This document shows positions 3,629 through 24,500 of a stretch of DNA of 29,091 nt, piece by piece (within the stretch, counting starts at the first letter, position 1; every line of letters starts with the position of its first letter). This stretch comes from an uncultured bacterium (GTDB lineage: Bacteria; SAR324; NAC60-12). The stretch lies in NCBI GenBank assembly GCA_965662845.1, contig CBFIJD010000037.1, forward strand, positions 1 through 29,091, read 5' to 3'. The notes below the pieces were generated by a model. It was not told the DNA's origin, searched no databases, and saw nothing but the letters and a program-made list of their open reading frames with translations. Made by a program: the position numbers and the translations under genes.

Positions 3629-4387
3629 TCACCACGGAATTTTCTCTCCATCCCACGCCACCAGCTCGCCCAGCGGGTTTTTCGTCGTTTTCTCCAGCGA
3701 CTCCATCATCGACGCGACGCTGTACTCGACGGTGAACAGTTTTTCGGCAGCCACATTCTTCTGAAAGGGCGCCGAGAGGTTCGTCGCCACCGTCCCAGGA
3801 TGTAGCGCGACTACCTTGGTCTGTGGCGCAACGCGGTGAAACTCAATCGCGATGTTGCTCATCAACATGTTCAAAGCGGCTTTAGAAGCCCGATAGCTGT
3901 ACCACCCGCCGGCGCGGTTGTCGGCAATGCTGCCCACGCGCGCAGAAATGGCGGCGAAGATGCTGGGAGAGGGATGACGAAACAAGCGATGAAGATGCTT
4001 CGCAAGGAAAACCGTTGGGAGCGTGTTGACTCGCATCGCCTCATGCATCTGTTCTGCGTTGATTTGACGGAGGCTTTTTTCAGGGCCATGTTGATCGTTG
4101 TGCAGGTATCCCACACAATTGATCAGAAAGTGCAGACTCCCCGCTTGTTCCTTGATTTGCACAGCGATGCGCTCCACATCCGCCTCTTGTGTGACATCAC
4201 CAGAGAGCACCCGAACGCGCCCCGATGAGCTGTCTTGGAGGTGTTGCAGCTCCGTCGCCTTCTCCGGATTCCGACAGACAGCGAAGATCGGAGCGTAGTC
4301 GCTGTGTTCGAGCAGGTGCTTAACAAACCCCCAGCCTAAGCCTCGGGCGGCGCCGACTACCAGCGCAGGTTTGAGCTTTTCAGACAT
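3629..4387 (-). CDS. SDR-family short-chain dehydrogenase/reductase
   Basis: N-terminal cofactor-binding VVGAARGLGWG motif. Catalytic YSYRASKAALN (YxxxK) motif. Length ~250 aa is typical of classical SDRs. Confidence 0.8.
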   Translation of the reverse strand: MSEKLKPALVVGAARGLGWGFVKHLLEHSDYAPIFAVCRNPEKATELQHLQDSSSGRVRVLSGDVTQEADVERIAVQIKEQAGSLHFLINCVGYLHNDQHGPEKSLRQINAEQMHEAMRVNTLPTVFLAKHLHRLFRHPSPSIFAAISARVGSIADNRAGGWYSYRASKAALNMLMSNIAIEFHRVAPQTKVVALHPGTVATNLSAPFQKNVAAEKLFTVEYSVASMMESLEKTTKNPLGELVAWDGEKIPW

Positions 4388-8550: not shown

Positions 8551-10311
8551 TTACATCCTCTCGGGCGGTTCGATGCCTAGCAATTGCAGTCCTCTCCGGA
8601 GCGTCTCTCCGACACAGTGAAAGAGAGACAAGCGCGCGTGTTGCAGCGCGGTAGAGTCTGCATATTTCACAGAGCACGCCCCATAACAACGGCTGAAATC
8701 TCGGGCGAGCTCGTAAAGAAATCGGGCGAGCAAAGAGGGGCGATATTGTTCGCCGGCCTGCGCCACGGTCGCGTTGAAGTCAAACACGCGCCGAATCAGA
8801 GCGGTCTCTGTCGGGTGTCGCAGCAGCGCATAGTCTGGAGACACATCGGAGAGATCTACATCAAAACTGCGCGCGATGCTGCGAATCCGCACATAGGCAT
8901 AGACGAGGTAGACGCCTGTGTCTCCTTCTGCGACCAACCAATCTTGCAGCGAGAACGTAATCTGCTTGTTCGGATCTTGATTGAGCATCCCATACTTAAT
9001 CGCCGCGACAGCGACTTTGCGGGTGGTATCGGAGATTTCGGCTTCAGTCCAGTCTCCTTGATGACTCTCCAAATATGTGCTGCGAATGAAGTCGCTGACT
9101 TTTTGCTGCAACTCGGAGAACAAAATCACGTTCCCAGCTCGGGAGCTCATTTTTCCGTCTGGGAGCACAACCAACGCGTACGGCAAATGGAAGCAATGTG
9201 CCGCCTGCTCATATCCCATGTGCTGGAGGGTCGCGAAGACTTGCTGGAAGTGAAGTGTCTGCTCGGCCCCGACCACGTAGATCGAGCGTTCAATGCTAAA
9301 CTCTTCAAACTTGCGCTGTGCGAGGGCGAGGTCTTTCGTCGCATAAAGCGTGTTTCCGTCGGACTTCAGCAATAAAAAAAAGCCCAAGTTCTGCTCTTGA
9401 AGATCGATTCCAATCGCTCCTTCTGAGCGTTGAAATGTGCCGTCTTCGGCTCCTTGCAAGACGAACTGCTTCCCGGCTTCATCGACCTCCGACTCAAAAA
9501 ACACATGATCGAAGCGCGTTCCCAGCCAGTCATAAATCGCGTTGAAGTCTGCGAGGGACCACTGTCGTGTCTCATCCCAAATGCGCAGCATGTCGGGTTC
9601 TTTGGCTTCGAGCTGCGCCAAAATCTGGCTGATGCGGGCGTGGGCTGAGGCTTCTTCTTCCCCTTCTAAGTTGGCTAAGTGCAAGGTGGCCGCGGTATAC
9701 AATTCACCCAGCCACTCCCCCCGAAAGGTCTCTGGCGGTTCAGCTTGGTTGTGATCAAGATAAAACCAAAGGCATTTGGCAATGTGTGTCCCGACGTCGC
9801 CAATGTAATTCGCGGCGATGACCTCATGACCATTGTAACGATACAACTGGACCAGACTATCTCCCAGCGCCACGTTCCGACAATGCCCCACGTGGAAGCC
9901 TTTGTGCGTGTTCGGCTGCGAGAACTCGATCATCACCCGCGAGCGAGACTCCGCTGCGTTTCTTTGGAAGTACGTCCCATCTAAGACGGTCGGGAGCGTT
10001 TGTGTCGCCATAAACGCATAGTTGACGCGGACATTCAAATAAGGGCCCGCCGCAGCGCAATCGGTGAATTGGCCGGTGGCGATGAGTCTGGGCTGAAGCG
10101 GGGCTTGCAGCGACTGCGCAATGCGTGGGGGAGCTTGACGGAGCTGTTTGGCGAGAGGAAAGCAAGGAAAGGCATAATCACCCAGCTCAGGGGTAGGAGG
10201 GGTCTCAATTGCCGACAGAAATGGGTTCATGTCCCATTCGTGTTCACCGTAGAGTTCTTGCAAAACAGAGGTGAGTTCGCTGGCGAAGGTCGTGACAAAT
10301 ATATTTTTCAT
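8551..10311 (-). CDS. argS: Arginine--tRNA ligase
   Basis: 586 aa. Class I signature HVGH (FHVGHCRNVALGD), KMSSR (KMSKS-type) motif, and an N-terminal anticodon-binding-like region GDYAFPCFPLAK. Confidence 0.93.
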   Translation of the reverse strand: MKNIFVTTFASELTSVLQELYGEHEWDMNPFLSAIETPPTPELGDYAFPCFPLAKQLRQAPPRIAQSLQAPLQPRLIATGQFTDCAAAGPYLNVRVNYAFMATQTLPTVLDGTYFQRNAAESRSRVMIEFSQPNTHKGFHVGHCRNVALGDSLVQLYRYNGHEVIAANYIGDVGTHIAKCLWFYLDHNQAEPPETFRGEWLGELYTAATLHLANLEGEEEASAHARISQILAQLEAKEPDMLRIWDETRQWSLADFNAIYDWLGTRFDHVFFESEVDEAGKQFVLQGAEDGTFQRSEGAIGIDLQEQNLGFFLLLKSDGNTLYATKDLALAQRKFEEFSIERSIYVVGAEQTLHFQQVFATLQHMGYEQAAHCFHLPYALVVLPDGKMSSRAGNVILFSELQQKVSDFIRSTYLESHQGDWTEAEISDTTRKVAVAAIKYGMLNQDPNKQITFSLQDWLVAEGDTGVYLVYAYVRIRSIARSFDVDLSDVSPDYALLRHPTETALIRRVFDFNATVAQAGEQYRPSLLARFLYELARDFSRCYGACSVKYADSTALQHARLSLFHCVGETLRRGLQLLGIEPPERM

Positions 10312-10399
10312 ACCTAGGGACTTGGGAGGAAGGAAAAGGGGGAACTATGCGCAGCGGTTGGGTCAGATTCAAGTGCAATTCGGCAGGATTCGAGGTGAG

Positions 10400-10451
10400 G
10401 CGGATCACTTTCCTCCGAGGAGCACCCCTCCCCTCTTCAGGCGTGATCCGC
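10400..10451. repeat. Hairpin copy 1: conserved 27-nt core CCGAGGAGCACCCCTCCCCTCTTCAGG (10415-10441) flanked by inverted repeat GCGGATCAC / GTGATCCGC
   Basis: Direct reading: the outer arms 10400-10408 and 10443-10451 are perfect reverse complements. The core itself can fold (CCGAGGAG / CUCUUCAGG with one G-U) around a C-rich loop. Confidence 0.85.
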
Positions 10452-10493
10452 ACGAGATCGCCAGCCCGTAGAGGACTAGCGATCGTTGAGGGA

Positions 10494-10543
10494 GCAGGTC
10501 ATGAATCCGAGGAGCACCCCTCCCCTCTTCAGGCATGACCTGC
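10494..10543. repeat. Hairpin copy 2: identical 27-nt core (10507-10533) flanked by a different inverted repeat GCAGGTCATG / CATGACCTGC
   Basis: Outer arms 10494-10503 and 10534-10543 are perfect reverse complements. The core is identical to copy 1. Confidence 0.85.
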
Positions 10544-10578
10544 TGGTTGCCATTGCCTAACGCAATGGCGAGAGCGGG

Positions 10579-10632
10579 GGCGAATCGCGTTCATCCGAGG
10601 AGCACCCCTCCCCTCTTCAGGAGCGATTCGCC
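10579..10632. repeat. Hairpin copy 3: identical 27-nt core (10595-10621) flanked by a third inverted repeat GGCGAATCGC / GCGATTCGCC
   Basis: Outer arms 10579-10588 and 10623-10632 are perfect reverse complements. An additional 8-bp hairpin GCCATTGC-ctaac-GCAATGGC lies at 10549-10569 between copies 2 and 3. Confidence 0.85.
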
Positions 10633-10645
10633 TTTCGTCGCCAGC

Positions 10646-10888
10646 TCAGCGGCCAACGACGTAGTTTTCAATCGCAGTAATGCACCGGTCAATGTTCCCG
10701 ATCTCTTGCTGCAAGTTTGTATACAGCTCCGTCACGCCGTTCAGGCGTGCCCTGAGTTCGTTATTCTCGTTTCGGAGCAACTGATTTTCCATGTTTAATT
10801 GCTCAACTTGAGCTCGCAAGTTTCGTTCCCAGTTTTTGTCACGCACTTCTCGAATGTCAATCACTTTCCCGATCACGTTGCCCTCCAT
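10646..10888 (-). CDS. Hypothetical small coiled-coil protein (80 aa)
   Basis: ATG with AAGG 7 nt upstream. Strongly heptad-like central region LRAQVEQLNMENQLLRNENNELRARL. Lies 12 nt downstream of the RHH gene on the same strand. No recognisable family. Confidence 0.5.
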   Translation of the reverse strand: MEGNVIGKVIDIREVRDKNWERNLRAQVEQLNMENQLLRNENNELRARLNGVTELYTNLQQEIGNIDRCITAIENYVVGR

Positions 10889-10900
10889 GTGCCTTGAGAG

Positions 10901-11080
10901 TTAGGATTCCTCTTCTCTAACAGAACCACGCTGGCCTTCAAAACGAACGAGTAGCTCATCGACGGCCTGCAAAATAATGTCTGACCGTTTCCGGCCAGTG
11001 CGATCGCATTCTTCCTGCAATCTCGTGAGCAAGATCTTCGGTATCTTTACCGCAATTTGCTCACGTTTTTCTGGTGGCAT
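10901..11080 (-). CDS. Ribbon-helix-helix (CopG/Arc-type) DNA-binding protein, 59 aa
   Basis: MPPEKREQIAVKIPKILLTRLQEECDRTGRKRSDIILQAVDELL fits the beta-strand plus two-helix RHH pattern (KxxVxIP...L...A....G.S.S.....A). Internal ATG at 11080 has a strong GGAGGA SD 5 nt upstream. The longer ORF-track start at 11149 lacks an SD. Confidence 0.65.
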   Translation of the reverse strand: MPPEKREQIAVKIPKILLTRLQEECDRTGRKRSDIILQAVDELLVRFEGQRGSVREEES

Positions 11081-12793: not shown

Positions 12794-13795
12794 TCAGGAC
12801 GGAAGCTGACGCTCTTGATAGAGCTTGCGTGTGATCTGCTGCAGGTGGCGCGCGCTGTCCGGAATCGGCTGATCCCAGAGCTTAATGATGCGCTTCGCGA
12901 GACGAATGATGTCTTGGGCCGCATAAGATTTGGGGTTGTGCTTCATCAACGCCGTCTTCTTGCGTACGGCGTCCACAACCGCTCGATCTTCTGGCACAAA
13001 CCCGATGTAGTCGACTTCAAGCTCCAACATGAAGCGCAGCGTCCGATCCAACACAGTGAGGATTTCTAAGTCATCTGGGCTCATGCCAACATTGAACACC
13101 AGCCGAGGACGGAACTGACGCCACACCGCGCGCAATTTTGCCGCGACTTGGGGGTCGAGTTCATTCACAAACTCTTGCACACCGGCAACATTGTAATCAC
13201 TGATCTCTACAGGCGTGATGTAAAGTTCGTGCAGACGCTTGCGGAGTTCTCGATTGACCGGCAGCGCGTGCTCCATCACGCGAAACGCGAGATTTTTCAA
13301 AAACGCGATCATGTTCGTGACCGCCGTATATTCCGGCGTCGTGACCAACAGCCCCTTTGGCGAGATGCGGAAAAAATCTAGCGTTAAAAAAGAACTCCCG
13401 GCTCCGAGATCCAGCAGAATGTAGTCCGCCTGCAGCTTCCGGATTTCATGCATCAAGCGCATCTGTTGGGCAGGCGTGATGTTCGCCATAAACGGATTGC
13501 CCGCGTCGCCAGCGATCAGGCTCAGGTTGGCATACGGGGTCTGCGTTTGGCATTCAGCTAGACTTTTGGGGCCGCCTCGCAGAAAGTCAGCCACTCCCTT
13601 GGTCGTGCTCAGCAACCCGAGATAGGAGTGCAAGTTCGCTGCGCCAAGGTCTAAATCAATGGCAATGGTCCGATATCCCAAGCGGGCCAGAACAAGCGCT
13701 AAGTTCGCTGAGATCAGGCTTTTGCCGACGCCGCCCTTCCCCCCAGCAATTGGAATGATTGTTGCGGATGACTTGGTGTTGGTTGCAGAGTTCAT
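12794..13795 (-). CDS. MinD/ParA-family deviant Walker A ATPase (paralog 1)
   Basis: Deviant Walker A AGGKGGVGKS with signature lysine, then DLDLGAANL and hydrophobic-DLGAG motifs (Walker A' and B). The start is uncertain. The ORF-track start at 13837 is a TTG. The first ATG (13795, MNSATNTKSSATIIPIAGGKGG) is used here. Confidence 0.8.
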   Translation of the reverse strand: MNSATNTKSSATIIPIAGGKGGVGKSLISANLALVLARLGYRTIAIDLDLGAANLHSYLGLLSTTKGVADFLRGGPKSLAECQTQTPYANLSLIAGDAGNPFMANITPAQQMRLMHEIRKLQADYILLDLGAGSSFLTLDFFRISPKGLLVTTPEYTAVTNMIAFLKNLAFRVMEHALPVNRELRKRLHELYITPVEISDYNVAGVQEFVNELDPQVAAKLRAVWRQFRPRLVFNVGMSPDDLEILTVLDRTLRFMLELEVDYIGFVPEDRAVVDAVRKKTALMKHNPKSYAAQDIIRLAKRIIKLWDQPIPDSARHLQQITRKLYQERQLPS

Positions 13796-13879
13796 GGACT
13801 TCGCTACTGAAAGGTTGGGGAACTGGAGCGCGCACAAGGTGGAGCGGGCGCAGAAGCTTTTTCTTCAAAAGGACGCAGT

Positions 13880-14824
13880 ATGACGACGATCATTCCCGTG
13901 GCAAGCGGCAAAGGAGGGGTGGGCAAGAGCCTCATCACCGCCAATCTTTCGATGGCCCTAGCCGAACTGGGCTATCAGGTGGTCGCCGCAGATCTCGATT
14001 TCGGAGGCGCCAATCTACATTCGTATTTGGGACTCAAAAACAACAACCCGGGCATCGGCGAGTTTCTGATGGGGCGCGTCCCGCGCTTGGATGACCTGCT
14101 CGTGAATACGAGTCACCAGCATGTGCACTTCTTACCGGGAGAAGGGACCACTCCCTTCCTCGCCAACATGAACGTCGCGCAGCGCATCCGACTGGCGCAA
14201 AACCTCCGCAAACTTCCCGCCGACTTCCTGTTGCTCGATCTCAGTGGGGGGAGCGCCAACCAAACCTTGGACTTTTTTGCCATGTCGCCCCGTAGTTTGC
14301 TGGTGTCGCGGGCAGACACACCATCTTTGATGAATCTGCTCGGATTTTTGAAGCAGCTCGCGTTTCGTCGCATTGAGCACTTCTTGCCGCGCAATCTGGA
14401 GCTGCAAAATGCTGTAAAGCAGTTGCTGTTCCAACCGATTAACGTCAAGCCCGCAGTGACTGTACAAAGAATTTACCAAACGATTGGAGAGTATGATCCA
14501 AACGTCGCGCGACGCGTGGCCGACCGCTGGACGCAGCTGAAACCCCGTGTGCTGTGCAACCAAGTTGGGCGCCCCGAAGACATGAACATCTGGAAACAAG
14601 TCCAAACGCTGGGACAAGAGCGCTTGCAGCTGGATCTTCAGTGCTGGGCAGAATTTGGTTTTGATGAAGATGTGAACGAAGCCTTGCGCGATCAAATCCC
14701 CCTATTTCAGTCCACTTATGGGGACGCTTTTATCACGCAGATGCTGGAGCTGGCTGATCGGATCGCATCCGAGTGGACGCTGCCTTCGCCCAAACAGCTC
14801 GCGAACGCTTCTCTTACAAGATAG
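13880..14824 (+). CDS. MinD/ParA-family deviant Walker A ATPase (paralog 2)
   Basis: ASGKGGVGKS deviant Walker A. ~60-75% local identity to the divergently encoded paralog (IIPxAxGKGGVGKSLIxANL...LGY...DLD.GGANLHSYLGL...LLLDLxxGS...TLDFF). AAGGA SD 8 nt upstream. It ends 184 nt before gvpA. Confidence 0.85.
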   Translation: MTTIIPVASGKGGVGKSLITANLSMALAELGYQVVAADLDFGGANLHSYLGLKNNNPGIGEFLMGRVPRLDDLLVNTSHQHVHFLPGEGTTPFLANMNVAQRIRLAQNLRKLPADFLLLDLSGGSANQTLDFFAMSPRSLLVSRADTPSLMNLLGFLKQLAFRRIEHFLPRNLELQNAVKQLLFQPINVKPAVTVQRIYQTIGEYDPNVARRVADRWTQLKPRVLCNQVGRPEDMNIWKQVQTLGQERLQLDLQCWAEFGFDEDVNEALRDQIPLFQSTYGDAFITQMLELADRIASEWTLPSPKQLANASLTR

Positions 14825-15008
14825 CCGGTCATCTCCAAATTCTTGGTGTGTAAACAGAAGGTGAAACGAACGGCACGCTCAGGTACTCTTTGTGCACATC
14901 CTCGTCGTGGAAGTCTGTCAGGTTGTGCAGATGTTTTCTGATAAAGGGCTGTCACTGAGCTTCCACTCACTCTCTTCTAATCCTTCAATAGTCGTCCAGG
15001 AGTAAGAC

Positions 15009-15218
15009 ATGGCTACCGTAGCTAACACCACCAATTCCTCAAGCCTTGCAGAAGTAGTTGACCGCGTGCTGGACAAAGGCATCGTGATTGATGCGTTTGC
15101 GAAAGTATCCCTCGTGGGGATTGAACTGCTCTCCATCGAAGCTCGCGTTGTTGTAGCTTCTGTTGAAACCTACCTAAAGTACGCTGAAGCCATCGGTCTG
15201 ACCCAGACTGCTGCCTGA
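15009..15218 (+). CDS. gvpA: Gas vesicle structural protein GvpA
   Basis: 69 aa; [56 protein letters not shown] is the hallmark GvpA sequence, closest to cyanobacterial GvpA. AGGAG SD 8 nt upstream. Confidence 0.97.
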
Positions 15219-15224
15219 TGATTC

Positions 15225-15249
15225 AGTCTCCGTTCTTGCAACGGAGACT
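15225..15249 (+). terminator. Perfect 10-bp stem / 5-nt loop hairpin between gvpA and the gvpC-like gene; candidate attenuator/partial terminator
   Basis: AGTCTCCGTT-cttgc-AACGGAGACT lies 7 nt after the gvpA stop, followed by a C/T-rich tract. High gvpA-to-downstream transcript ratios enforced by such hairpins are known for cyanobacterial gvp operons. Confidence 0.45.
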
Positions 15250-15279
15250 CGCCCCCTCCTTCTTTCCACCTGAGGTCTT

Positions 15280-16284
15280 ATGCAAGCAAGCGTCGAACAG
15301 CTCCGCTCCCAAGTTCAACAACTCCTCGACAACACCCGCAATGAGCGCCAAGCCAGTCGCGAAGCCATCGTCAACGAATTGAACACTTTCCGCTCAGAGC
15401 TCCAGTCTGGAGTCATCGAGCTGCGCCAGCAGATGCAACAAGACTTGCAACAAAGGCAGCAAGACTTTCAACAAAGCTCCCAAACCGCCCGCGAGGCACG
15501 CCACGCCTTCTTGCAAAGTCTCAAAGACTCGACCGAAGCGTTCCGCCAAGCCGCCCGCGATCAAATCATGTCACAAGGCCAAACTGCCCGTGAGACACGC
15601 CACGCTTACCTCGAACAGCTGCGCCAAGACGTCCACCAACTGCAACAAAACCTGCGCGATCAACTGCAAGCGGCCAGTCAAAACTTGAGCGAGGAAGCCG
15701 AAAACCAACGCACCGAAAGACGCGAATACATTGAGAGCCTGCGCGATCAGATCACCGAAGCCTTGAGCCGCGTCCAAGCCGACCTGCAGCAAATGCAGGC
15801 ACAGTTGCAAGCCGACGGCGACGCAGCGCGCTCTACACGCGCTCAGTTTGTCTCCGACCTGCAAGCCCAAGTGCAGGACTTCCGCACACGCACCCGACAA
15901 GAACTCGCAGAGACCGCGCGGGCTGGACGCGAGAGCCGTCGAGCTTTTTTAGAAGCGCTCCGCTCGGGCAAGAGCCCCACAGGCGCCCCTGTCGCAGAAG
16001 CGGCCGCGCCGACTCCGACTCCCACTTTGGTCAGCGAAGAGCCGCCTGCAGCACCCGCTTCCGAAGAACCCGCAGCCTCGGCAGAAGCCCCTGTTGCAGC
16101 GCCGCCTGCGGCCCCTGCGACAGAAGCCTCGCCCGCTGAGACCCGTGAAGCGGCCGCGCTGCGCCGACGTCGCATGCTCGCCGCTCAACGCGCCCGCACC
16201 ACCGAAGGCCAAACGCCTCGCAAAACGCTGAAAGTGGCCTCCGAAAGCCCCACCGAGAAACTGGACTCAAACGACCAGTTCTAA
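15280..16284 (+). CDS. gvpC: GvpC-like repeat protein (paralog 1) with Ala/Pro/Glu-rich C-terminal tail
   Basis: Position immediately after gvpA. Six repeats of motif R..R..(F/Y)(L/V/I)..L with spacings 47-33-40-40-33 aa (33-aa units with heptad insertions), as in GvpC. Glutamine-rich helical composition. The C-terminal ~100 aa are low-complexity A/P/E. Confidence 0.6.
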   Translation: MQASVEQLRSQVQQLLDNTRNERQASREAIVNELNTFRSELQSGVIELRQQMQQDLQQRQQDFQQSSQTAREARHAFLQSLKDSTEAFRQAARDQIMSQGQTARETRHAYLEQLRQDVHQLQQNLRDQLQAASQNLSEEAENQRTERREYIESLRDQITEALSRVQADLQQMQAQLQADGDAARSTRAQFVSDLQAQVQDFRTRTRQELAETARAGRESRRAFLEALRSGKSPTGAPVAEAAAPTPTPTLVSEEPPAAPASEEPAASAEAPVAAPPAAPATEASPAETREAAALRRRRMLAAQRARTTEGQTPRKTLKVASESPTEKLDSNDQF

Positions 16285-16295
16285 ATTAGGAGCGG

Positions 16296-17198
16296 ATGAC
16301 CGAAAACCTACACCTCGAAACGGGCGAAAGCTTCGTTAATAGCGCATCTGTCGAAGACTTAACGGAGCGCGCGCTGGCCTACCTCCAAGTCGGCTACCCT
16401 GTGCATTTCGCAGGCCCCGCTGGAACCGGCAAAACCACCCTCGCCTTCCACCTCGCCGCTCAGCTGGGGCGCCCCATCACCTTGATTCATGGCAACGACG
16501 AGTTCGGGACCTCCGATCTTGTAGGTGACAACGTCGGCTTCAAAAGCAACCGAATTGTCGACAATTACGTCCACTCCGTTGTGCGCACCCAAGAAGAAGT
16601 GCAGGAACTCTGGGTAGACGACCGCTTGACGCAAGCTTGCGTCCGTGGGGAAACGCTGATTTACGACGAGTTCAACCGCTCACGCCCCGAGGCCAATAAC
16701 GTGTTCTTGAGCGTGCTCGGAGAAGGTGTCTTGAACCTGCCCAAGCGGCGCGACACAGAGAAGAGCAGCTACGTGGTGGTTCACCCTGAATTTCACGTCA
16801 TTTTCACATCAAACCCTGAAGAATACGCCGGAACACACAAGACGCAGGATGCTCTCGGAGACCGCATGATCACCATCGAGTTGCAGCACCCTGATCGACA
16901 GACCGAGGTGGGCATTGTCGTCGCCAAGTCTGGCCTCAAAGAAGCAGACTCTGCAAAAATTGTGGATCTGGTCCGCGAAGTGCGTGAGTTGAGCCCGAAC
17001 AAATTGCGCCCAACCATGCGCTCTTCCATCGCCATTGCCAAAGTGATCCAGCATCAAAAACGTCGTGTCCGCTCCAGCGACCTCTTCTTCCGCAAAGTGT
17101 GCTATGACCTCTTGCACGCCGACATTGCGAAGGTCAAACGCGGCGGATCTACCATCCCCAGTCATGAAATTGACGAAATCATCGACCGTATCTTCTGA
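16296..17198 (+). CDS. gvpN: Gas vesicle protein GvpN (AAA+ ATPase), copy 1
   Basis: Walker A GPAGTGKTTLA, Walker B LIYDEFNRS. Full-length match to GvpN/CbbQ-like AAA+ proteins. Confidence 0.92.
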   Translation: MTENLHLETGESFVNSASVEDLTERALAYLQVGYPVHFAGPAGTGKTTLAFHLAAQLGRPITLIHGNDEFGTSDLVGDNVGFKSNRIVDNYVHSVVRTQEEVQELWVDDRLTQACVRGETLIYDEFNRSRPEANNVFLSVLGEGVLNLPKRRDTEKSSYVVVHPEFHVIFTSNPEEYAGTHKTQDALGDRMITIELQHPDRQTEVGIVVAKSGLKEADSAKIVDLVREVRELSPNKLRPTMRSSIAIAKVIQHQKRRVRSSDLFFRKVCYDLLHADIAKVKRGGSTIPSHEIDEIIDRIF

Positions 17199-17284
17199 AG
17201 ATCACGTGTCCGTCCAACGAGACTGGGCTCGTTCTTCCAGCCTCTCGCACGAAGTATTCTCTCAACGCTGTCCTCAAAGGTCGC

Positions 17285-18451
17285 ATGCCAGCCAGCCTTG
17301 AACAAATTCGCGCCGAAGTGCAACAGCTCCTCGAGACGCATCGCAGCGAACGCCAAGCCACACGCGAGGAGGTCTTTGGACAACTGCAAAGCTTTCGCAA
17401 AACGCTGAAGACTAGCATCGTCCACAAGCGCAATGCGATGCAGCAAGCGCGAGAGACCAGCGCCGCAGATGCGAGAGCAGCCCGCCAGCAATTTGTGCAC
17501 AATCTGAAATCCGACGCCGAACAACGACGTCAGACCGTGCGTCAACGTCTGGGAGACCTCGGCATACAGTCCCGTCAAGCGCGCCAAGAATTTCAAGTTC
17601 ACCTCCAAAAAGAAGTCCGTAACCTGCAAGGGCAAATGCGCCACAAGCTCCAAACGAACACCCAGCATCTGGCCGAATGCGCGGAAGCCGATCGTACGGA
17701 ACGGCAACAATTTGTGCAGAACTTACGCGGCAATGTGCGAGATTTGCTTGCTTCGGTTCAAACAGAAAATCAGCAAGCCCACGCCCAACTCCAAGTTGTC
17801 AGCAGAGAGGCTCAAAATGAGCGAGCGCAGTTTGTGGCAAACTTGAGCACCAACGTCAGCGCATTCCGGCAAAAAGTGCGGCAAGAGCTGCAGGACTCGG
17901 CGAAGCGTGCTCGCAAACAACGCCAAGAGTTTCGTGAAAATTTACGCAACCCAACTCCCATCGTGGAAAATACCTCGCTTGCGCTGACGCCTTCAGAATC
18001 ACAGCTCAGCCCTACAAAGGATGACCTCCCGCTAGAAAAGCGCGAAGCCCCGCTCACAGATGCGTCGCTCCCCCCTCACGTTGTGGAAACCGCGCAACCT
18101 CCTACAATCGCGTCACCGGCCAAGCAGACTCGGAAGCAGCCAGCGACTCTGACATCTCGTGACCAAGCCGAGCTAGCGTCCAACGCAACCGCTCCAGAGG
18201 CGTCACCTCCCGCGTCCGTTGCCACAGCGTCCCCCAATCCGAAGCCTCGCAGCCCCACACCCACAACGGACGCCGTCACTCGACCCGCTCGACGGAGAGC
18301 TGCGGCAGGCAAGACCCCAAAGACCGCCTCGCAGCGTTCCGGCGCAGCGTCCTCCACCGAAGAGCCAGAGGCGCCGCTGTCGTCCATGACACCTCCAACT
18401 CGTCAGCTTCGTCAACAGCGCACAAGCCCTGACTCTCATGACTTTTTCTAA
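17285..18451 (+). CDS. gvpC: GvpC-like repeat protein (paralog 2) with Pro/Thr/Ser/Ala-rich C-terminal tail
   Basis: Same motif R..R.(Q)(F)(V)..L repeated six times with spacings 39-33-40-40-33, parallel to paralog 1. The N-terminus MPASLEQIRAEVQQLLETHRSERQATREEV parallels MQASVEQLRSQVQQLLDNTRNERQASREAI. A ~170-aa disordered tail follows. Confidence 0.6.
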   Translation: MPASLEQIRAEVQQLLETHRSERQATREEVFGQLQSFRKTLKTSIVHKRNAMQQARETSAADARAARQQFVHNLKSDAEQRRQTVRQRLGDLGIQSRQARQEFQVHLQKEVRNLQGQMRHKLQTNTQHLAECAEADRTERQQFVQNLRGNVRDLLASVQTENQQAHAQLQVVSREAQNERAQFVANLSTNVSAFRQKVRQELQDSAKRARKQRQEFRENLRNPTPIVENTSLALTPSESQLSPTKDDLPLEKREAPLTDASLPPHVVETAQPPTIASPAKQTRKQPATLTSRDQAELASNATAPEASPPASVATASPNPKPRSPTPTTDAVTRPARRRAAAGKTPKTASQRSGAASSTEEPEAPLSSMTPPTRQLRQQRTSPDSHDFF

Positions 18452-18457
18452 GACCGC

Positions 18458-19360
18458 ATGACCGAGAACTTACACATTGAGACGGGCGACAGCTTTGTTG
18501 ACAGCCCCTATGTTCAGGACATCACCGAACGCGCCTTGGTTTACCTGAAAGTCGGCTATCCTGTACATTTTGCCGGCCCGGCAGGCACCGGAAAAACAAC
18601 GCTCGCCTTCCACCTCGCCTCGCAGCTCGGGCGCCCGATTACGCTGATTCACGGAAATGATGAGTTTGGGACCTCCGATCTGGTCGGCGCCAACGTGGGC
18701 TTTAAGCGCCACCGCGTCGTCGACAATTATGTACACTCTGTAATGCGCACCCAAGAAGAAGTCCGCCAACTGTGGGTTGACGATCGTCTAACGCAGGCTT
18801 GTGTCAACGGCGAGACGCTGATTTATGATGAGTTCAATCGCTCGCGCCCAGAAGCCAACAACGTCTTCTTGAGTGTTCTGGGAGAAGGCATTTTGAATTT
18901 GCCGAAGCGGCGTGGCGAAGAGCAACAGAGTTACGTCGAGGTGCATCCAGACTTTCATGTGATTTTCACCTCGAATCCCGAAGAATACGCCGGCACTCAC
19001 AAGACGCAGGACGCGCTGAGTGACCGCATGATCATCATTGATCTGCACCACCCCGACCGCCACACCGAGGTTGGCATTGTCATCGCCAAAGCGCGCCTCC
19101 CCACAGAAGACGCAGAGAAAATCGTGAACATCGTCCGCGAGGTGCGCGAGCTGAGCCCACACAAACTCCGACCGACCATGCGCTCTTCCATCGCCATCGC
19201 CAAGGTCATCGCTCACCAAAAGCGTCAGGTCTCCTCTAAAGATCTCTTCTTCCGCAAAGTATGCTATGACATCTTGCAAGCCGACATTGCACGAGTGAAG
19301 CGCGATGGCGACCCGATTGAAAATCACGAACTCGACGAAATTATTGCACGATACTGCTAA
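18458..19360 (+). CDS. gvpN: Gas vesicle protein GvpN (AAA+ ATPase), copy 2
   Basis: ~80% aa identity to copy 1 over the full length, with identical Walker motifs. Nucleotide divergence is concentrated at third codon positions. Confidence 0.92.
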   Translation: MTENLHIETGDSFVDSPYVQDITERALVYLKVGYPVHFAGPAGTGKTTLAFHLASQLGRPITLIHGNDEFGTSDLVGANVGFKRHRVVDNYVHSVMRTQEEVRQLWVDDRLTQACVNGETLIYDEFNRSRPEANNVFLSVLGEGILNLPKRRGEEQQSYVEVHPDFHVIFTSNPEEYAGTHKTQDALSDRMIIIDLHHPDRHTEVGIVIAKARLPTEDAEKIVNIVREVRELSPHKLRPTMRSSIAIAKVIAHQKRQVSSKDLFFRKVCYDILQADIARVKRDGDPIENHELDEIIARYC

Positions 19361-19394
19361 GCTCCGTCATCACGGCAACACATAGGGAGGCATC

Positions 19395-19688
19395 ATGGCT
19401 CAACGCAAAGGAATGCGCGATATCCTGACTCACGGGCAACAACGCGGCGCCCAAACGCACAACGGCAACACCGCCTATTTGCGTCTGTATTCCTTGGAGA
19501 TGGAACGGACTCGCTTGAGTAAAGAAAAAGAAGCCTTGCTGATCCATCTGAAATCGATTGAAAAGCGCGAGTCCACCATCCTGGAAGAACAAAAGAAACT
19601 TCGTCAAAAAATCGAGCTGTGGCATGACGAAGCCGAGCAGCAATCCGCTGCCGTCGAAGCCGAGAACAGCTTTAAGATTCGATACTAA
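19395..19688 (+). CDS. Small charged coiled-coil protein, possible GvpG-like accessory gas vesicle protein
   Basis: 97 aa, in-operon position between gvpN and gvpF/L. Central charged helix LEMERTRLSKEKEALLIHLKSIEKRESTILEEQKKLRQKIE resembles GvpG-type proteins in composition. The assignment is tentative. Confidence 0.4.
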   Translation: MAQRKGMRDILTHGQQRGAQTHNGNTAYLRLYSLEMERTRLSKEKEALLIHLKSIEKRESTILEEQKKLRQKIELWHDEAEQQSAAVEAENSFKIRY

Positions 19689-19702
19689 CAACAAGGAACG
19701 TT

Positions 19703-20449
19703 GTGGCTGGAAAATATCTGTATGCCATCGTAGCAGGCAACCAAATCACTTTACCTGAGAGCGCCGGCATCGAAGACCAAGCGCTCGAAATACTCGGCAC
19801 GGAACATCTCGCCATCGTCGTCAGTGAAACCAACGCAACGCAGCTGCGCCCTCAACGCAAGCACCTCGCGCGACACCAAGAAGTGCTCGCTGGGCTCCTC
19901 AAACAGGGGGCGACGCCACTGCCGATGAAATTTGGCATGATCGCCGATTCCGCTGGGTCGGTAGAACGTCTGCTAGAAGCCAACGCAGCGACCTTGCAAA
20001 CACAGCTCGACCGCGTCGTAGGTCAAGTGGAAATGGGACTGCGCGTCGTGCTCGAAGTCCCCAATGTGTTCGAGTTCTTCGTCGGCAAATATGAGACTCT
20101 GGGGAAACTGCGCGATCAGTTCTTCAACGATCGTCAACCCAACCAAGACGAGATGATTCACCTAGGGCGCGAGTTCGAGAAAGCGCTCACCTCCGAACGA
20201 GAGCGAGCCCTCGAGCAAGTCGAGCAACGGCTCAGGCCCCACTGCACGCAAATCCAGAGCAACGACTGCCGCGACGAGCGAGAGATTGTGCATGTGGCCT
20301 GCTTGATCCCGCGCGAGGCAGAGTCCCAGTTTGAGCAATGGGTGATTGAGGCCGCCCGCCCCTTCGACCAAAACTATACCTTTGACTTCAACGGTCCGTG
20401 GTGTCCGCACAACTTTGTGCAGCTAGATCTGGAAGCTCCCACTGGATAA
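19703..20449 (+). CDS. gvpF: Gas vesicle protein GvpF/GvpL family
   Basis: N-terminal YLYAIV and overall length/pattern of the GvpF/L family. GTG start with AAGGAA SD 6 nt upstream. Confidence 0.85.
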   Translation: MAGKYLYAIVAGNQITLPESAGIEDQALEILGTEHLAIVVSETNATQLRPQRKHLARHQEVLAGLLKQGATPLPMKFGMIADSAGSVERLLEANAATLQTQLDRVVGQVEMGLRVVLEVPNVFEFFVGKYETLGKLRDQFFNDRQPNQDEMIHLGREFEKALTSERERALEQVEQRLRPHCTQIQSNDCRDEREIVHVACLIPREAESQFEQWVIEAARPFDQNYTFDFNGPWCPHNFVQLDLEAPTG

Positions 20450-20458
20450 AACACGCTG

Positions 20459-20713
20459 ATGGATGACGAAGCCCTGCTGCAAAAAATCACCCTCTGTGAA
20501 GTGCTAGACCGCGTGCTCAACAAAGGGGTCGTGCTCGCCGGAGAAGCCACGATCTCGGTGGCAAACGTCGAGCTGCTCTATCTAGACCTGCGCCTCTTGG
20601 TTTGTTCCTCCGCTACCAAACATCGAGTCAAGCATGACGATCAATCCGACGCCCATTCAAACCGAAACGCCCGAAGCGTTCCGCCAAGTGCTGCGGCCCC
20701 CCGAGTGGAATGA
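20459..20713 (+). CDS. GvpA/GvpJ-family minor gas vesicle protein (GvpM/GvpS-like)
   Basis: LCEVLDRVLNKGVVLAGEATISVANVELLYLDLRLLVCSSAT is the GvpA-fold core. Its 3' 80 nt overlap gvpK out of frame. Confidence 0.75.
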   Translation: MDDEALLQKITLCEVLDRVLNKGVVLAGEATISVANVELLYLDLRLLVCSSATKHRVKHDDQSDAHSNRNARSVPPSAAAPRVE

Positions 20714-20972
20714 GAACCTCAACCTGAACGCGAGCAACGCCCCCAATGGGCTCGCCCAGCTCGTCTTGACCTTGATTCAACTCCTGCATGACTTGCTGGA
20801 GCGACAGGCGCTGCAGCGTATGGACGCAGGCCAGCTCACCGACGCACAAATTGAAGAAGTCGGCACCACCCTGATGCGTCAAGCAGAAGAGATCGAGCGT
20901 CTCTGCGAACTGTGTGGTCTCACGCCCGCCGATCTGAATCTTGACCTTGGTCCCTTGGGATCTCTGCGCTAG
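20634..20972 (+). CDS. gvpK: Gas vesicle protein GvpK
   Basis: GLAQLVLTLIQLLHDLLERQALQRMDAGQLTDAQIEEVGTTLMRQAEEIERLCELCGL matches the conserved GvpK core. Confidence 0.85.
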   Translation: MTINPTPIQTETPEAFRQVLRPPEWNENLNLNASNAPNGLAQLVLTLIQLLHDLLERQALQRMDAGQLTDAQIEEVGTTLMRQAEEIERLCELCGLTPADLNLDLGPLGSLR

Positions 20973-20981
20973 GAGCCCTTT

Positions 20982-21281
20982 TTGTCGATTCACCACAACA
21001 CCTCCTCCACCAATCTCGCCGATCTCTTAGAACGAGTCCTCGACAAGGGAATCGTGATCAGCGGCGATATTCGGGTCAAAATTGTAGACATTGAGTTGCT
21101 GACCATTGAGCTCCGCCTGATCATTTGCTCCGTCGATAAGGCCCGTGAAATCGGCTTGGATTGGTGGAGTTTTACCGGGAAGCAGCCGTCTCCAGAGCTG
21201 CAAAGCTCGGTACAACGCCTCGAAGAGCGACTGGAACGCATGGAGCGGTTGCTCACCCAACAAGCTCAGGACGACAAATAG
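20982..21281 (+). CDS. gvpJ: Gas vesicle protein GvpJ
   Basis: [51 protein letters not shown] is the GvpJ/GvpA-family core. TTG start with perfect AGGAG SD 6 nt upstream, directly after the gvpK stop. Confidence 0.85.
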   Translation: MSIHHNTSSTNLADLLERVLDKGIVISGDIRVKIVDIELLTIELRLIICSVDKAREIGLDWWSFTGKQPSPELQSSVQRLEERLERMERLLTQQAQDDK

Positions 21282-21511
21282 TTTGGGAATGCAAGCTGAC
21301 ACGGACTGAACGCTTGCGCCGCAGTCACCCCCAGCGCACCTTTGTTGCCCCAGCCTGTGCTAGGGCGCGCCCGCTTCCACACTCGCCTGATCGCCCCTCT
21401 CCCACACAAACCACCTGCGCTCCGCCGGAAAATAAGCTATTGTCAGACGGTCTTACATTTGCAGCTTGAAAGTGTGCATTTCGTTTTTCAGACCTTTCTC
21501 CAGACAAGCTT

Positions 21512-24500
21512 ATGAATTGGCATCAACGCTGGAAACTCCTTTGGCTCGGAGTGTTGCTGGCCTCGGCGCAGGGAGCGTCTGCGGCAACGTGTGGCCTTCC
21601 TGCCGGACTCTCAGAAGATCAACAGTTTGCCTTCGCTGAGCGCATGGTCGCAGATGGCTTGCTCACAAGCGCCCGTGACTATTTGAGTTGTTACCGCGCG
21701 AGCGAACCTAACGGCCAATTCCGCTCTCAGGCCATGCAGCTGGAAGGAGAGGTTCTGATGCGCATGGGCGAGGAATATTGGTCGCAAGCGTTTGTGGTGT
21801 TTGAAGAGTGGCTGCGCGAACATCCAGAGCACCCTGCCGCGCCCTCCATTCGCCTGAAGCTGGGCAACATCCACTTCCGCTTTGGGCGAATGCAATCCAC
21901 CGAAGAAGCCCTCGAACCCATCCCAGCTTCGGCGGAAGAGTATGCGCAAGCGCGCTTTTTGATGGGGCAAGCCGTCTTCCGCCGCTCCGTCTCGTATCGC
22001 CAGAAAAACGCCCCCACGCAGGCCGATCAACTCGCCGCCGCCGCCGCCAGCTATCTGGAAGTCGCCCTGCAGGGGGAACTCAACCCCGCGCAGCAGCTTG
22101 AGGCCCACTATCAAGCGGGCTACGCGCGCTATGTGTTGCAGCAATATGAGCAGGTTCCGCCACACTGGGAGAGCTACCTTGCCCAAGCCGAGGCGAGCCC
22201 GCAGCGAGAAGAGACGCGCTATCTCTTAGCCTCGGCGCATCGCCGCTTGGAGCAGTGGCCGCAAGCCGAGCAACGCTATGGCGAGGTGGCCGTCACCACA
22301 CAAGAGATCTCGGCAACGAACCAGAATTTGGCGAAATTTTGGTGGGGCGAGGCCGCGTTTCAGCGAGGCTTGGCTGAAGTGCGCCAGAGCGAGGCGAGTG
22401 AACTCAACCCCAGCTTTGCCAAGGAGTTGACTCCACGCTACGAGAGCTATCTGGCGACTGAAGAGGCCACCTATCGCCCCCTCGCAGCCTTTCGGCTCGG
22501 CGTGCTCTATTCGGCAGCAGAGCAACCGCAGGAGGCCATCGCGGCTTATGAGCGCTACTTGGAAACCCGCGATGAAGCCTATCGCCAAGCAGCGCACTAT
22601 CAACTGGGGGTCCTGCACGCCCAGCAGAATGAACCCCGCGCCGCGATTAAGCACTTAGAGCCCCTGCAAGACGTCCCCACCTATCGTCGTGACCCCGCCT
22701 TCTGGAACTTGATGGCGCAGCAATACGCGGCCATTCCCGATGAACCCCGCTTGGAGAGCTTGCTCTTAGCGGCGTCAGAAGCGCCGGAGTTTTCGCGGCG
22801 CACACGCCTCCAGTTTTTGCTGCGGCTCACCACACGGCAGTATCAAGCGCGCCGCTGTCTGGACCTGCTAGACACGCTGGTGCGATACGACGAACCCGCC
22901 GACATTCCCGAAGCACAACAGCTCTATCAACAGCGTGGCAGCTGCTTTTATCTGGAGAAAAAGTGGGCTTTGGCCCGCAAAGATTTGCAGCGCGTTCGCC
23001 ACGTTCCAGCCTATCGCCCCACGATCTTCCGCAGTTTGGTCGCGATCAACCGTCAATTGGAAGACGGCCCAGCGTTGCAGGAGACCCTCGCTTGGGGCGC
23101 CGAACCCGAAGTCTTGCTGCGCGACGCCGATTGGCAGCTGTGGGTCGAAGAGCTGCGCAAACAAGAAGACTGGGAAGCCCTACTGACGGTCTATGCTCGT
23201 TGGGACAGCCGCGCCGATGCCACGCTGAGAGAGCGCCCCGAGCACTTGTTGCAGTGGGCCCGAGCCCATCGGCAAGTCGGACAAACCACCGAAGAAGCAC
23301 GCCTGCTAGAAGACGTCCTCTTTTTGCTGCCTGAACAACCGGACGCGCTGCGAGAACAGACCGTTGGGCGGCTGGCGACCCTCTATCAAGAGCAAGATCG
23401 GGTCGCTGACATTCCCAAACTCTACCAAATCCACCTGCTGGCACTCTTGCCGGAAGAGGCTCCCAAATATCGAGATTATGCCTTGTATCTTGGTGAGCTG
23501 TACCAGCGGCAACTCAACAACGAAGACCAAGCCCTCCCGTGGCTCGAAGAAGCGGATCGGGGAGGCCAGACGCCCACAGAAGTGCGCGCTGCGCTCTTGC
23601 GAGCCGGCATTCATCAACAACGCGGTGAGACCGACTTGGCGCTCCCGATTTGGCGACGCCTGAGCCTGCAGCAAGCCGATGCGTCAGCGCAGTTTCTGGC
23701 GACCTACCGACTGGCCACCCTGCTCGCGGAGCGCAAGCAATGGGACGAAGCGCTGCAACAGTTTGAGGAGGTCTCGCGACTGCCGGCGCCCCGCGACCAA
23801 GACCTTGCCATGCAACAGGACGCCGCAACCCGCGCCACAGAGATCCGACAGTTCGTGTTTCAACGTGACTTGAAAGATCAACTAGAGCGGAGAGATTGGC
23901 CCGCTGTCAGCACACACATCCGCACCCACTGGGAACAGGGCCTCGTCCAACTAACCCCCGCGTTACTCCAAACTTGGGTGCACGCCGAGCAGCAGCAAGC
24001 GCGTTGGCAAGGCGTCCTAACCGTCTACAACGATGTTCAGAAGAGAGAGCCCCAGCGGGCTCTGACAACCGATGACCTCATCTGGCAAGGCGAAGCCCAC
24101 GAACAGCTGAAGCAGCCGCGTGAGGCGGTCGCGTTCTATGAGCGGGCTCTGAAAGAGCTGCCGGCTGACGACGAACGCCGACCTCGCGTCTCAGCTCGTC
24201 TGGTTCGTTTATATGAGGCTAGCGAAGACCATGAGAAGCAGCTCCAGCTCTACGAGCGCCTCTATGCTGAGACGAACCGTGCCGCAGAGAAACAACAATA
24301 TGCGCTGCGCGCAGGGATTCTCAGCTTGCAGAAACTCCAAAACGAACGCCGTGGCGCCGAATGGCTCAGCAAAGTCGATCAAGGGGGAACTTCGGATGTC
24401 GAACTACAGTCCGCGCTGTTGCTAACAGAACTCGACCAAAACAACGAGAATTACGCCATCGCCTTAGAGCGTTTGCAGCAGTTCGAGCAACGCGAGGTGC

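Follow-up and report, generated by a model that had tools for sequence, protein, structure and literature searches.

A structured argS mRNA leader with tandem hairpins in one small uncultured SAR324-like marine clade

The window, meaning the whole stretch of DNA analysed here, comprises 29,091 nucleotides of contig CBFIJD010000037.1 (GenBank assembly GCA_965662845.1) from an uncultured SAR324 bacterium. On its minus strand argS is followed by closely spaced moaE, tag (encoding a methyladenine glycosylase) and rlmL, while glyoxalase and epimerase genes lie upstream and are divergently transcribed. Inside the 334-nt space upstream of argS sits an array of three hairpin modules, named c1, c2 and c3 in the order of their coordinates. 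The features of the locus are the following.

8551-10311, minus strand: argS, arginyl-tRNA synthetase (586 aa), first gene of argS-moaE-tag-rlmL
10312-10399, minus strand: pyrimidine-rich, G-poor tail (C 40%, G 15%) running from the last module to the argS AUG
10400-10451, minus strand: module c1, outer stem GCGGAUCAC/GUGAUCCGC, loop at 10423-10429
10456-10484, minus strand: middle hairpin hpM, GAUCGCUAG/CUGGCGAUC, between c2 and c1
10493-10544, minus strand: module c2, outer stem AGCAGGUCAUG/CAUGACCUGCU, loop at 10515-10521
10549-10569, minus strand: small hairpin P0, GCCAUUGC guuag GCAAUGGC, immediately 5' of c2
10579-10632, minus strand: module c3, the 5'-most module of the RNA, outer stem GGCGAAUCGC/GCGAUUCGCC, then CC:GG, bulge UGAA, inner stem GAGGGG:CUCCUC and loop AGGGGUG at 10603-10609
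10637-10660, minus strand: hairpin hpX, GUCGUUGGC cgcuga GCUGGCGAC, 5' of c3, present in both MFE and centroid structures
10646-10888, minus strand: 80-aa coiled-coil ORF with sub-threshold ZapB/bZIP-like Pfam matches only
10833-10860, minus strand: conserved upstream block TTGACA-N11-13-GCGTGACAAAA(G), common to all four lineages discussed below
10901-11080, minus strand: 59-aa RHH (CopG-like) ORF upstream of the leader, with a strong GGAGG Shine-Dalgarno sequence

Further along the window, ParA-like ATPases are encoded at 12794-13837 and 13880-14824, an apolipoprotein-like repeat protein at 15280-16284, two paralogous 300-aa AAA_5 ATPases at 16296-17198 and 18458-19360, and GvpL/GvpF at 19703-20449. 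These genes are counted in a gas-vesicle-type gene cluster given as 13880-21300, and a single 2155-aa ORF consisting mostly of TPR repeats occupies 21512-27979.

A scan of the whole window found three exact copies of the 27-mer CCGAGGAGCACCCCTCCCCTCTTCAGG, starting at 10415, 10507 and 10595 and all located in one 233-nt stretch. No fourth copy was detected within the 29 kb with up to three mismatches allowed, and none of 100 shuffled sequences gave any match. The core that is identical in c1, c2 and c3 is 28 nt long and recurs at a spacing of 88-92 nt, and each copy is enclosed by perfectly complementary arms (copy 1, 10400-10408 and 10443-10451, 9 nt; copy 2, 10493-10503 and 10534-10544, 11 nt; copy 3, 10579-10588 and 10623-10632, 10 nt). 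These results bear out a sequence-only reading of the same DNA, which had described three identical 27-mers, each inside inverted arms, and two hairpins filling the gaps between them, both of which are present (10549-10569 and 10456-10484). The same reading had held that the hairpins are not classical intrinsic terminators, in agreement with a terminator scan of 10400-10632 that was empty on both strands; between the modules and the AUG no terminator in the sense orientation was found either. The 592 nt containing the array are 100% identical in the window and in two independent assemblies (JGI 3300038982 and Logan ERR15116882), and the array is thus not an assembly artefact.

Comparison with relatives was based on 43 argS loci fetched via protein similarity, of which the closest (ArgRS 66-67% identical) belong to uncultured 'Deltaproteobacteria'/SAR324-like MAGs. 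A fuzzy search of these loci revealed two core-like sequences approximately 110-220 nt upstream of argS, in the same orientation, in L002, L003 and L022, and the degenerate pattern derived from them, RAGGRGAGGGGTGCYYCTYGG, matched 13 metagenome loci. Nine of the 13 contain two matches 85 nt apart, with argS directly downstream in every case. The single matches in L046, L047, L051 and L052 were discarded as chance, having neither flanking arms nor argS and scoring 18-26 bits with the covariance model. The search via ArgRS homologues yielded a lineage with 72% identical ArgRS and two modules (L057, L058, L063) and a lineage with 64% identical ArgRS and two degenerate modules (L060). Intact two-module carriers comprise three GTDB MAGs (L002, L003, L022), nine metagenome contigs (within L044-L056) and L057, L058 and L063, and altogether 14 distinct related leaders with two hairpins, here called A and B, precede argS-moaE-tag-rlmL (ArgRS 64-72% identical). 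The two modules of each carrier are 85 nt apart and always precede the argS orthologue by 95-110 nt, on the strand that is sense for argS.

In approximately 870 kb of loci, matches to the covariance model occurred upstream of argS only. Another 39 argS loci, drawn from canonical SAR324, Bdellovibrionota and further groups, gave no match to the model, and the closest outgroups, which have infA upstream of argS, gave none either. All carriers share one gene order, in which epimerase and glyoxalase genes diverge from the leader and argS-moaE-tag-rlmL follows it, and this order is absent from non-carriers. The range of the leader is narrow: one syntenic clade. Because all carriers belong to that clade, the link to argS represents a single evolutionary event, and an arginine-related function is therefore not demonstrable from it. 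Scans for the exact core and for 22-mers returned zero matches in the GTDB representative genomes and JGI contigs scanned; the source population is still present in JGI and Logan assemblies, where it was reached via ArgRS protein clusters, so the scanned collections are incomplete.

As argS is encoded on the minus strand, the sequence-only reading had folded the reverse complement of the sense RNA. On the sense strand each module consists of an outer stem of 8-11 bp, a CC:GG step, a 4-nt bulge on the 5' side with 3-6 unpaired nt on the 3' side, and a head formed by a 6-bp inner stem and the 7-nt loop AGGGGUG. The 5' strand of the inner stem is all purine and the 3' strand all pyrimidine (GAGGGG:CUCCUC in the window, GAGGAG:CUCCUC in hairpin A, AAGGGG:CCUCUU in hairpin B). 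The loop is unchanged in all 21 distinct aligned modules, the weakly scoring B module of L060 included, and the parts that vary across modules are the 5' bulge and the 3' internal loop. In the covariance-model alignment of the 21 modules 96.1% of the cells are paired, compared with 36-56% in slid controls; in eight of the 18 pairs both partners have changed, and the observed covariation score was reached by none of 500 shuffles. The window modules scored 74.2 bits (c3, model R1), 65.5 bits (c2) and 68 bits (c1). A separate RNAalifold run on 11 leaders recovered P0, A, the middle hairpin and B. P0 has a counterpart at the equivalent place in relatives (positions 9-14 pair with 24-29, double changes included), and hpM corresponds to the consensus helix 94-104/114-123.

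The strand of the functional molecule can be read from the same alignment. G·U pairs account for 46 of 358 cells on the sense strand only; on the opposite strand they become C·A and pairing drops to 84.9%. Likewise, the single U·G pair of hpM on the sense strand turns into mismatched C·A when the plus strand is read. The 6-bp inner stem of the sense strand is paired at 98% across relatives, versus 80% for the plus-strand inner stem with a 10-nt C-rich loop proposed in the sequence-only reading, which requires a different register for each variant. From the G·U asymmetry and the inner-stem pairing it follows that the functional molecule is the argS-sense RNA, and both the strand and the inner fold of the earlier proposal have to be replaced. 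The folding z-scores in the window were -3.0 for the plus and -3.7 for the minus strand. The further claim that the element is non-coding and selected for its structure is upheld.

The threefold identity of the window cores, in contrast, is not what carries the case for selection. The full-leader alignment identifies c2 as the positional orthologue of hairpin A, with which it shares the arms GCAGGUC/GACCUGCUC, and c1 as the positional orthologue of hairpin B, with which it shares the arms GCGGAU../..AUCCGC and three compensatory pairs; in both cases the flanks are common as well as the arms. Module c3 is an extra B-type copy (78% identical to c1 over 74 nt) that occurs in the window lineage only, in a stretch of approximately 260 nt missing from relatives. 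The relatives have A and B cores that disagree with each other at 10 of 28 positions, while the window cores are identical even at bulge nucleotides that vary freely in other lineages. Given that orthologous A and B differ to this extent, the identity in the window reflects recent lineage-specific homogenisation, for which the sequences would point to gene conversion or duplication within the window lineage as the route, and taken alone it is no evidence of selection. An invariant core between covarying arms had been taken as the mark of selection on structure; this stands for the loop and top stem, which are conserved across lineages, and fails for the 28-nt identity of the window copies. More generally, concerted evolution within one leader can yield the pattern of invariant core and covarying arms, which by itself overstates selection.

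Selection on the leader is instead shown by the conservation of the loop and top stem across lineages and by the constraint on module B. Between L057 and L022, whose ArgRS proteins are 72% identical and whose loci have GC contents of 54% and 42%, module B is identical at 53 of 54 positions amid neighbours of roughly 50% identity (P0, 10/20; hpM, 18/27; tail, 18/38). The leader is nevertheless dispensable in some lineages, L001 having lost it beyond -45 and L060 showing its decay. In L060, whose ArgRS is 85% identical to that of the L003 group with its intact modules, A has the loop AAGGGUG on a 3-bp stem and B has broken pairs (35.7 bits; 3690-3835), which suggests that selection has been relaxed or altered within one sublineage. 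In L001, a close relative of L002, leader homology ends approximately 45 nt upstream of the argS ATG, and it looks as if an insertion or rearrangement removed or displaced the hairpins. In place of the leader, L001 (region 1-500) has AT-rich DNA that carries short TATACTATAGTCTAT-like repeats in tandem, along with an ORF running on the other strand.

Downstream of the modules, the tail is of similar composition in all lineages (C 18-40%, G 7-15%) and approximately 90-100 nt long, the last module ending 88 nt (window) to about 100 nt (relatives) before the AUG. No convincing Shine-Dalgarno sequence was found in the argS tail. Among the upstream regions of about 20 window ORFs, most are without a clear Shine-Dalgarno sequence and several, argS included, contain pyrimidine-rich tracts, which suggests that initiation in the source organism is largely independent of this sequence. 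A role of the heads as a Shine-Dalgarno mimic or standby site, in which GGGGUG would pair with the anti-Shine-Dalgarno sequence, was rejected on the ground that most genes are without a Shine-Dalgarno sequence and pyrimidine-rich upstream regions are common, so that argS is not special in this respect.

Upstream of the hairpins, and well separated from them, the TTGACA block recurs at approximately 9625-9657 in L003, 9663-9695 in L057 and 3550-3580 in L060. It contains a perfect -35 hexamer with no recognisable -10 element at 17 nt; the window version has its spacing reduced by 2 nt and falls within the 80-aa ORF. Judged from this sequence, the block may be the promoter or an operator of the operon; a promoter search at the leader identified none. 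The 80-aa ORF is confined to the window lineage, where most of it, together with c3, fills the insertion of approximately 260 nt. Its stop codon is inside hpX, 14 nt before c3, and its translation could affect folding of the leader. The RHH ORF has a counterpart in L057 (9445-9666; 83% identical over 48 aa) and is limited to the window and L057 lineages. Its product had been put forward as a binding partner of the array; it is not an obligate one, as L003 and L060 keep the hairpins and are without the RHH gene.

Neither the window nor the two relatives compared with Rfam matched a described RNA, permissive thresholds giving nothing beyond noise. Searching the whole window against Rfam with cmscan at the gathering score, a check that had been advised together with the original description, returned no match to a known family, and even at E<=10 the Rfam T-box model had no match in window 10250-10950, L003 9600-10010 or L057 9640-10010. 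Inspection by eye for an ARG-box, a sigma-70 -10 element, a k-turn, a sarcin-ricin motif and rRNA H74 (the RlmL substrate) revealed none that was consistent across lineages. A full-text literature search found no described argS leader motif, and the leader has apparently not been described previously. The three hairpins are thus real elements of a structured argS mRNA leader that is conserved in one small uncultured SAR324-like marine clade.

As to what the leader does, the array is probably part of a structured argS-moaE-tag-rlmL leader whose heads are putative operator sites for a trans-acting factor. The ancestral order would have been P0, module A, the middle hairpin, module B, a pyrimidine-rich tail of about 90 nt and the AUG, with the variable outer stem of each module holding up the conserved head (the 6-bp purine:pyrimidine stem and its AGGGGUG loop). 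The window lineage would then have gained a third, B-like module and homogenised all three heads. We infer a regulatory role from this arrangement, with the heads acting as repeated recognition sites of an operator; the most plausible binder would be a protein occupying two or more sites, and the output step would be control of expression through the downstream tail, where head occupancy would affect loading of the ribosome (S1) or of Rho. At approximately 90-100 nt from the AUG, the modules are too far away for a direct block of the ribosome. Pairing or pseudoknot formation of the G-rich head with the tail was no better than in composition-matched shuffles (z between -0.1 and -1.1; +0.7 in L060). 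By analogy with ThrRS and thrS, the binder is possibly ArgRS, the obvious candidate, although thrS is no match in three respects: mimicry by the loop, proximity to the AUG and the oligomeric state of the enzyme, ArgRS being a monomer. Among the functions suggested in the sequence-only reading (a small RNA or leader, a REP-like family, a DNA-level array), it is the leader with repeated protein-binding loops that is favoured, and the others are not.

A more specific proposal, which we put forward only tentatively, is that the leader represents a new class of aminoacyl-tRNA synthetase riboregulator unrelated to T-boxes, in which the AGGGGUG heads would sense arginine charging via ArgRS, tRNA-Arg or arginine. 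The G-poor pyrimidine tail would serve as the transmitter, for example by governing access of Rho or S1. If true, this would amount to non-T-box synthetase feedback in a Gram-negative phylum poor in Shine-Dalgarno sequences.

It is unlikely that the leader is purely passive, its stacked hairpins protecting the 5' region of the mRNA or serving RNase III/E processing without any sensing. The presence of several stable local hairpins would suit such a role, as would the dispensability of the leader in L001 and its decay in L060. Stability alone, however, leaves the invariant loop, the purine:pyrimidine top stem and the identity of module B at 53 of 54 positions unexplained.

Similarly unlikely is an upstream ORF with Arg codons that starts in the bulge of hairpin A, so that stalling at scarce charged tRNA-Arg would melt the hairpin and raise argS expression. 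E. coli pheST provides a precedent for an aminoacyl-tRNA synthetase operon under stalling attenuation, and a start codon does occupy the same place of hairpin A in every lineage other than that of the window (AUG in L057 and L060; UUG in L003, L002, L022 and L048; GUG in L056 and L049). It is followed by AGG AGA GGG GUG CUC CUC (M-R-R-G-V-L-L) in all except L060, which reads AUG AAA AGG GUG UUC CUC (M-K-R-V-F-L) with one Arg codon. Hairpin B reads P-R-K-R-G-G-V-P-L-G-R, and the three window modules read L-K-R-G-G-V-L-L-G in one frame. Yet AGG or AGA turns up in one frame or another of any purine tract, and NUG results from three of the four bases, which makes these observations weak evidence. 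Moreover, the A orthologue of the window has AAG at the start position, and the peptide ranges from 8 to 64 codons, varying even between close relatives. Substitutions preserve pairs and not amino acids (CUC CUC to CCU CUU, Leu to Pro), the start codon is buried in the hairpin, and no intrinsic terminator follows.

A protein-free sensor, in which the tandem heads would bind a small molecule such as arginine, or tRNA-Arg, as a non-T-box riboregulator, appears more improbable still. Tandem hairpins with identical conserved loops recall the logic of guanidine-II, module B contains conserved internal-loop nucleotides, and the missing Rfam match would fit a new class. The conserved positions, however, are in the terminal loop and stem, not in a junction pocket; the window modules have not retained the internal loops of module B, T-box features are absent, and a narrow distribution in a single gene context offers no clue to a regulon.

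We attach very little weight to a plus-strand product, an antisense or small RNA with the fold of the sequence-only reading: the window stems are all perfectly Watson-Crick paired, so that both strands fold well, but on the plus strand the 46 G·U cells of the relatives turn into C·A mismatches, the inner stem is 80% paired with a register shifting from variant to variant, and there is no conserved plus-strand terminator. Least credible of all is a mobile or dispersed repeat (REP- or MITE-like), a CRISPR-like array or a DNA cruciform, which the three identical 28-nt cores, the 88-92-nt spacing and the inverted flanks might call to mind, given that no other copy exists in the 29 kb, that the exact core is absent from the scanned GTDB and JGI sets, that the degenerate pattern matches argS leaders and four armless chance sites only, that the 'spacers' are conserved orthologous hairpins in a locus without cas genes, and that the G·U pairs favour RNA. 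The suggestion of a novel REP-like family in particular is countered by the scanned collections, where true matches were confined to sites preceding an argS orthologue, and that of a DNA-level cruciform by the 46 of 358 pair cells that are G·U, which pair only in the RNA of one strand. A CRISPR array was likewise rejected, as 10 of the 28 positions distinguish the A 'repeat' from the B 'repeat' in relatives; a Pfam scan of 18 ORFs identified no cas gene.

To our knowledge, the regulation of aminoacyl-tRNA synthetase genes in bacteria is largely unknown beyond T-boxes and E. coli thrS, pheST and alaS, and we know of nothing on such regulation in uncultured phyla such as SAR324. Of the systems with which the argS leader can be compared, T-box leaders share with it the class of gene and a long structured 5' leader, whereas the specifier loop, the T-box sequence, the antiterminator/terminator pair and the U-tract are absent here. 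A pheST-type attenuator also precedes an aminoacyl-tRNA synthetase gene, and a short ORF with cognate Arg codons is possible inside the structured argS leader, but here there is neither a run of cognate codons nor a terminator, the ORF length is not conserved, and in the window the ORF is absent at that place. CsrB/RsmZ sponges and CsrA-bound leaders likewise contain repeated hairpins in one RNA. Here, by contrast, only two to three modules are found, fixed before one operon, and GGA occurs in stems and internal loops only (e.g. CUCGGAU, UUGGAC), outside the conserved loop; the CsrB-like logic once suggested for the array does not agree with an invariant loop, AGGGGUG, that contains no GGA. 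The guanidine-II (mini-ykkC) riboswitch resembles the argS leader in that a single leader holds a pair of hairpins whose stems vary and whose conserved loops are identical; it differs in its ACGR tetraloops, compared with 7-nt G-rich loops in far larger modules with internal loops, and in its gene context, and no Rfam match was obtained here.

The likeness to the E. coli thrS operator extends furthest, since there, too, the leader of an aminoacyl-tRNA synthetase gene carries two similar stem-loops that present the same conserved head with a 7-nt loop, with other structure in between, and the repeated-site logic of thrS implies a multivalent binder. The thrS hairpins, however, mimic the anticodon arm of tRNA-Thr and abut the Shine-Dalgarno sequence, in contrast to argS modules at a distance of approximately 90-100 nt from the AUG. 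An anticodon loop carries U33, and for tRNA-Arg of E. coli the identity elements in it are C35 and G/U36. Both U33 and C35 are missing from AGGGGUG, which bears no resemblance to the anticodon loop of tRNA-Arg, and mimicry of the tRNA-Arg anticodon arm was rejected by these general identity rules rather than against a tRNA-Arg gene of this lineage, none being encoded in the window or the collected loci. With its covarying structure, its confinement to the sense strand and its fixed place before the same gene, the argS leader shows the features of a generic structured cis-regulatory 5' leader, and it adds a covariation-supported RNA motif without an Rfam counterpart, in which an unusually constrained module presents two to three copies of a simple head.
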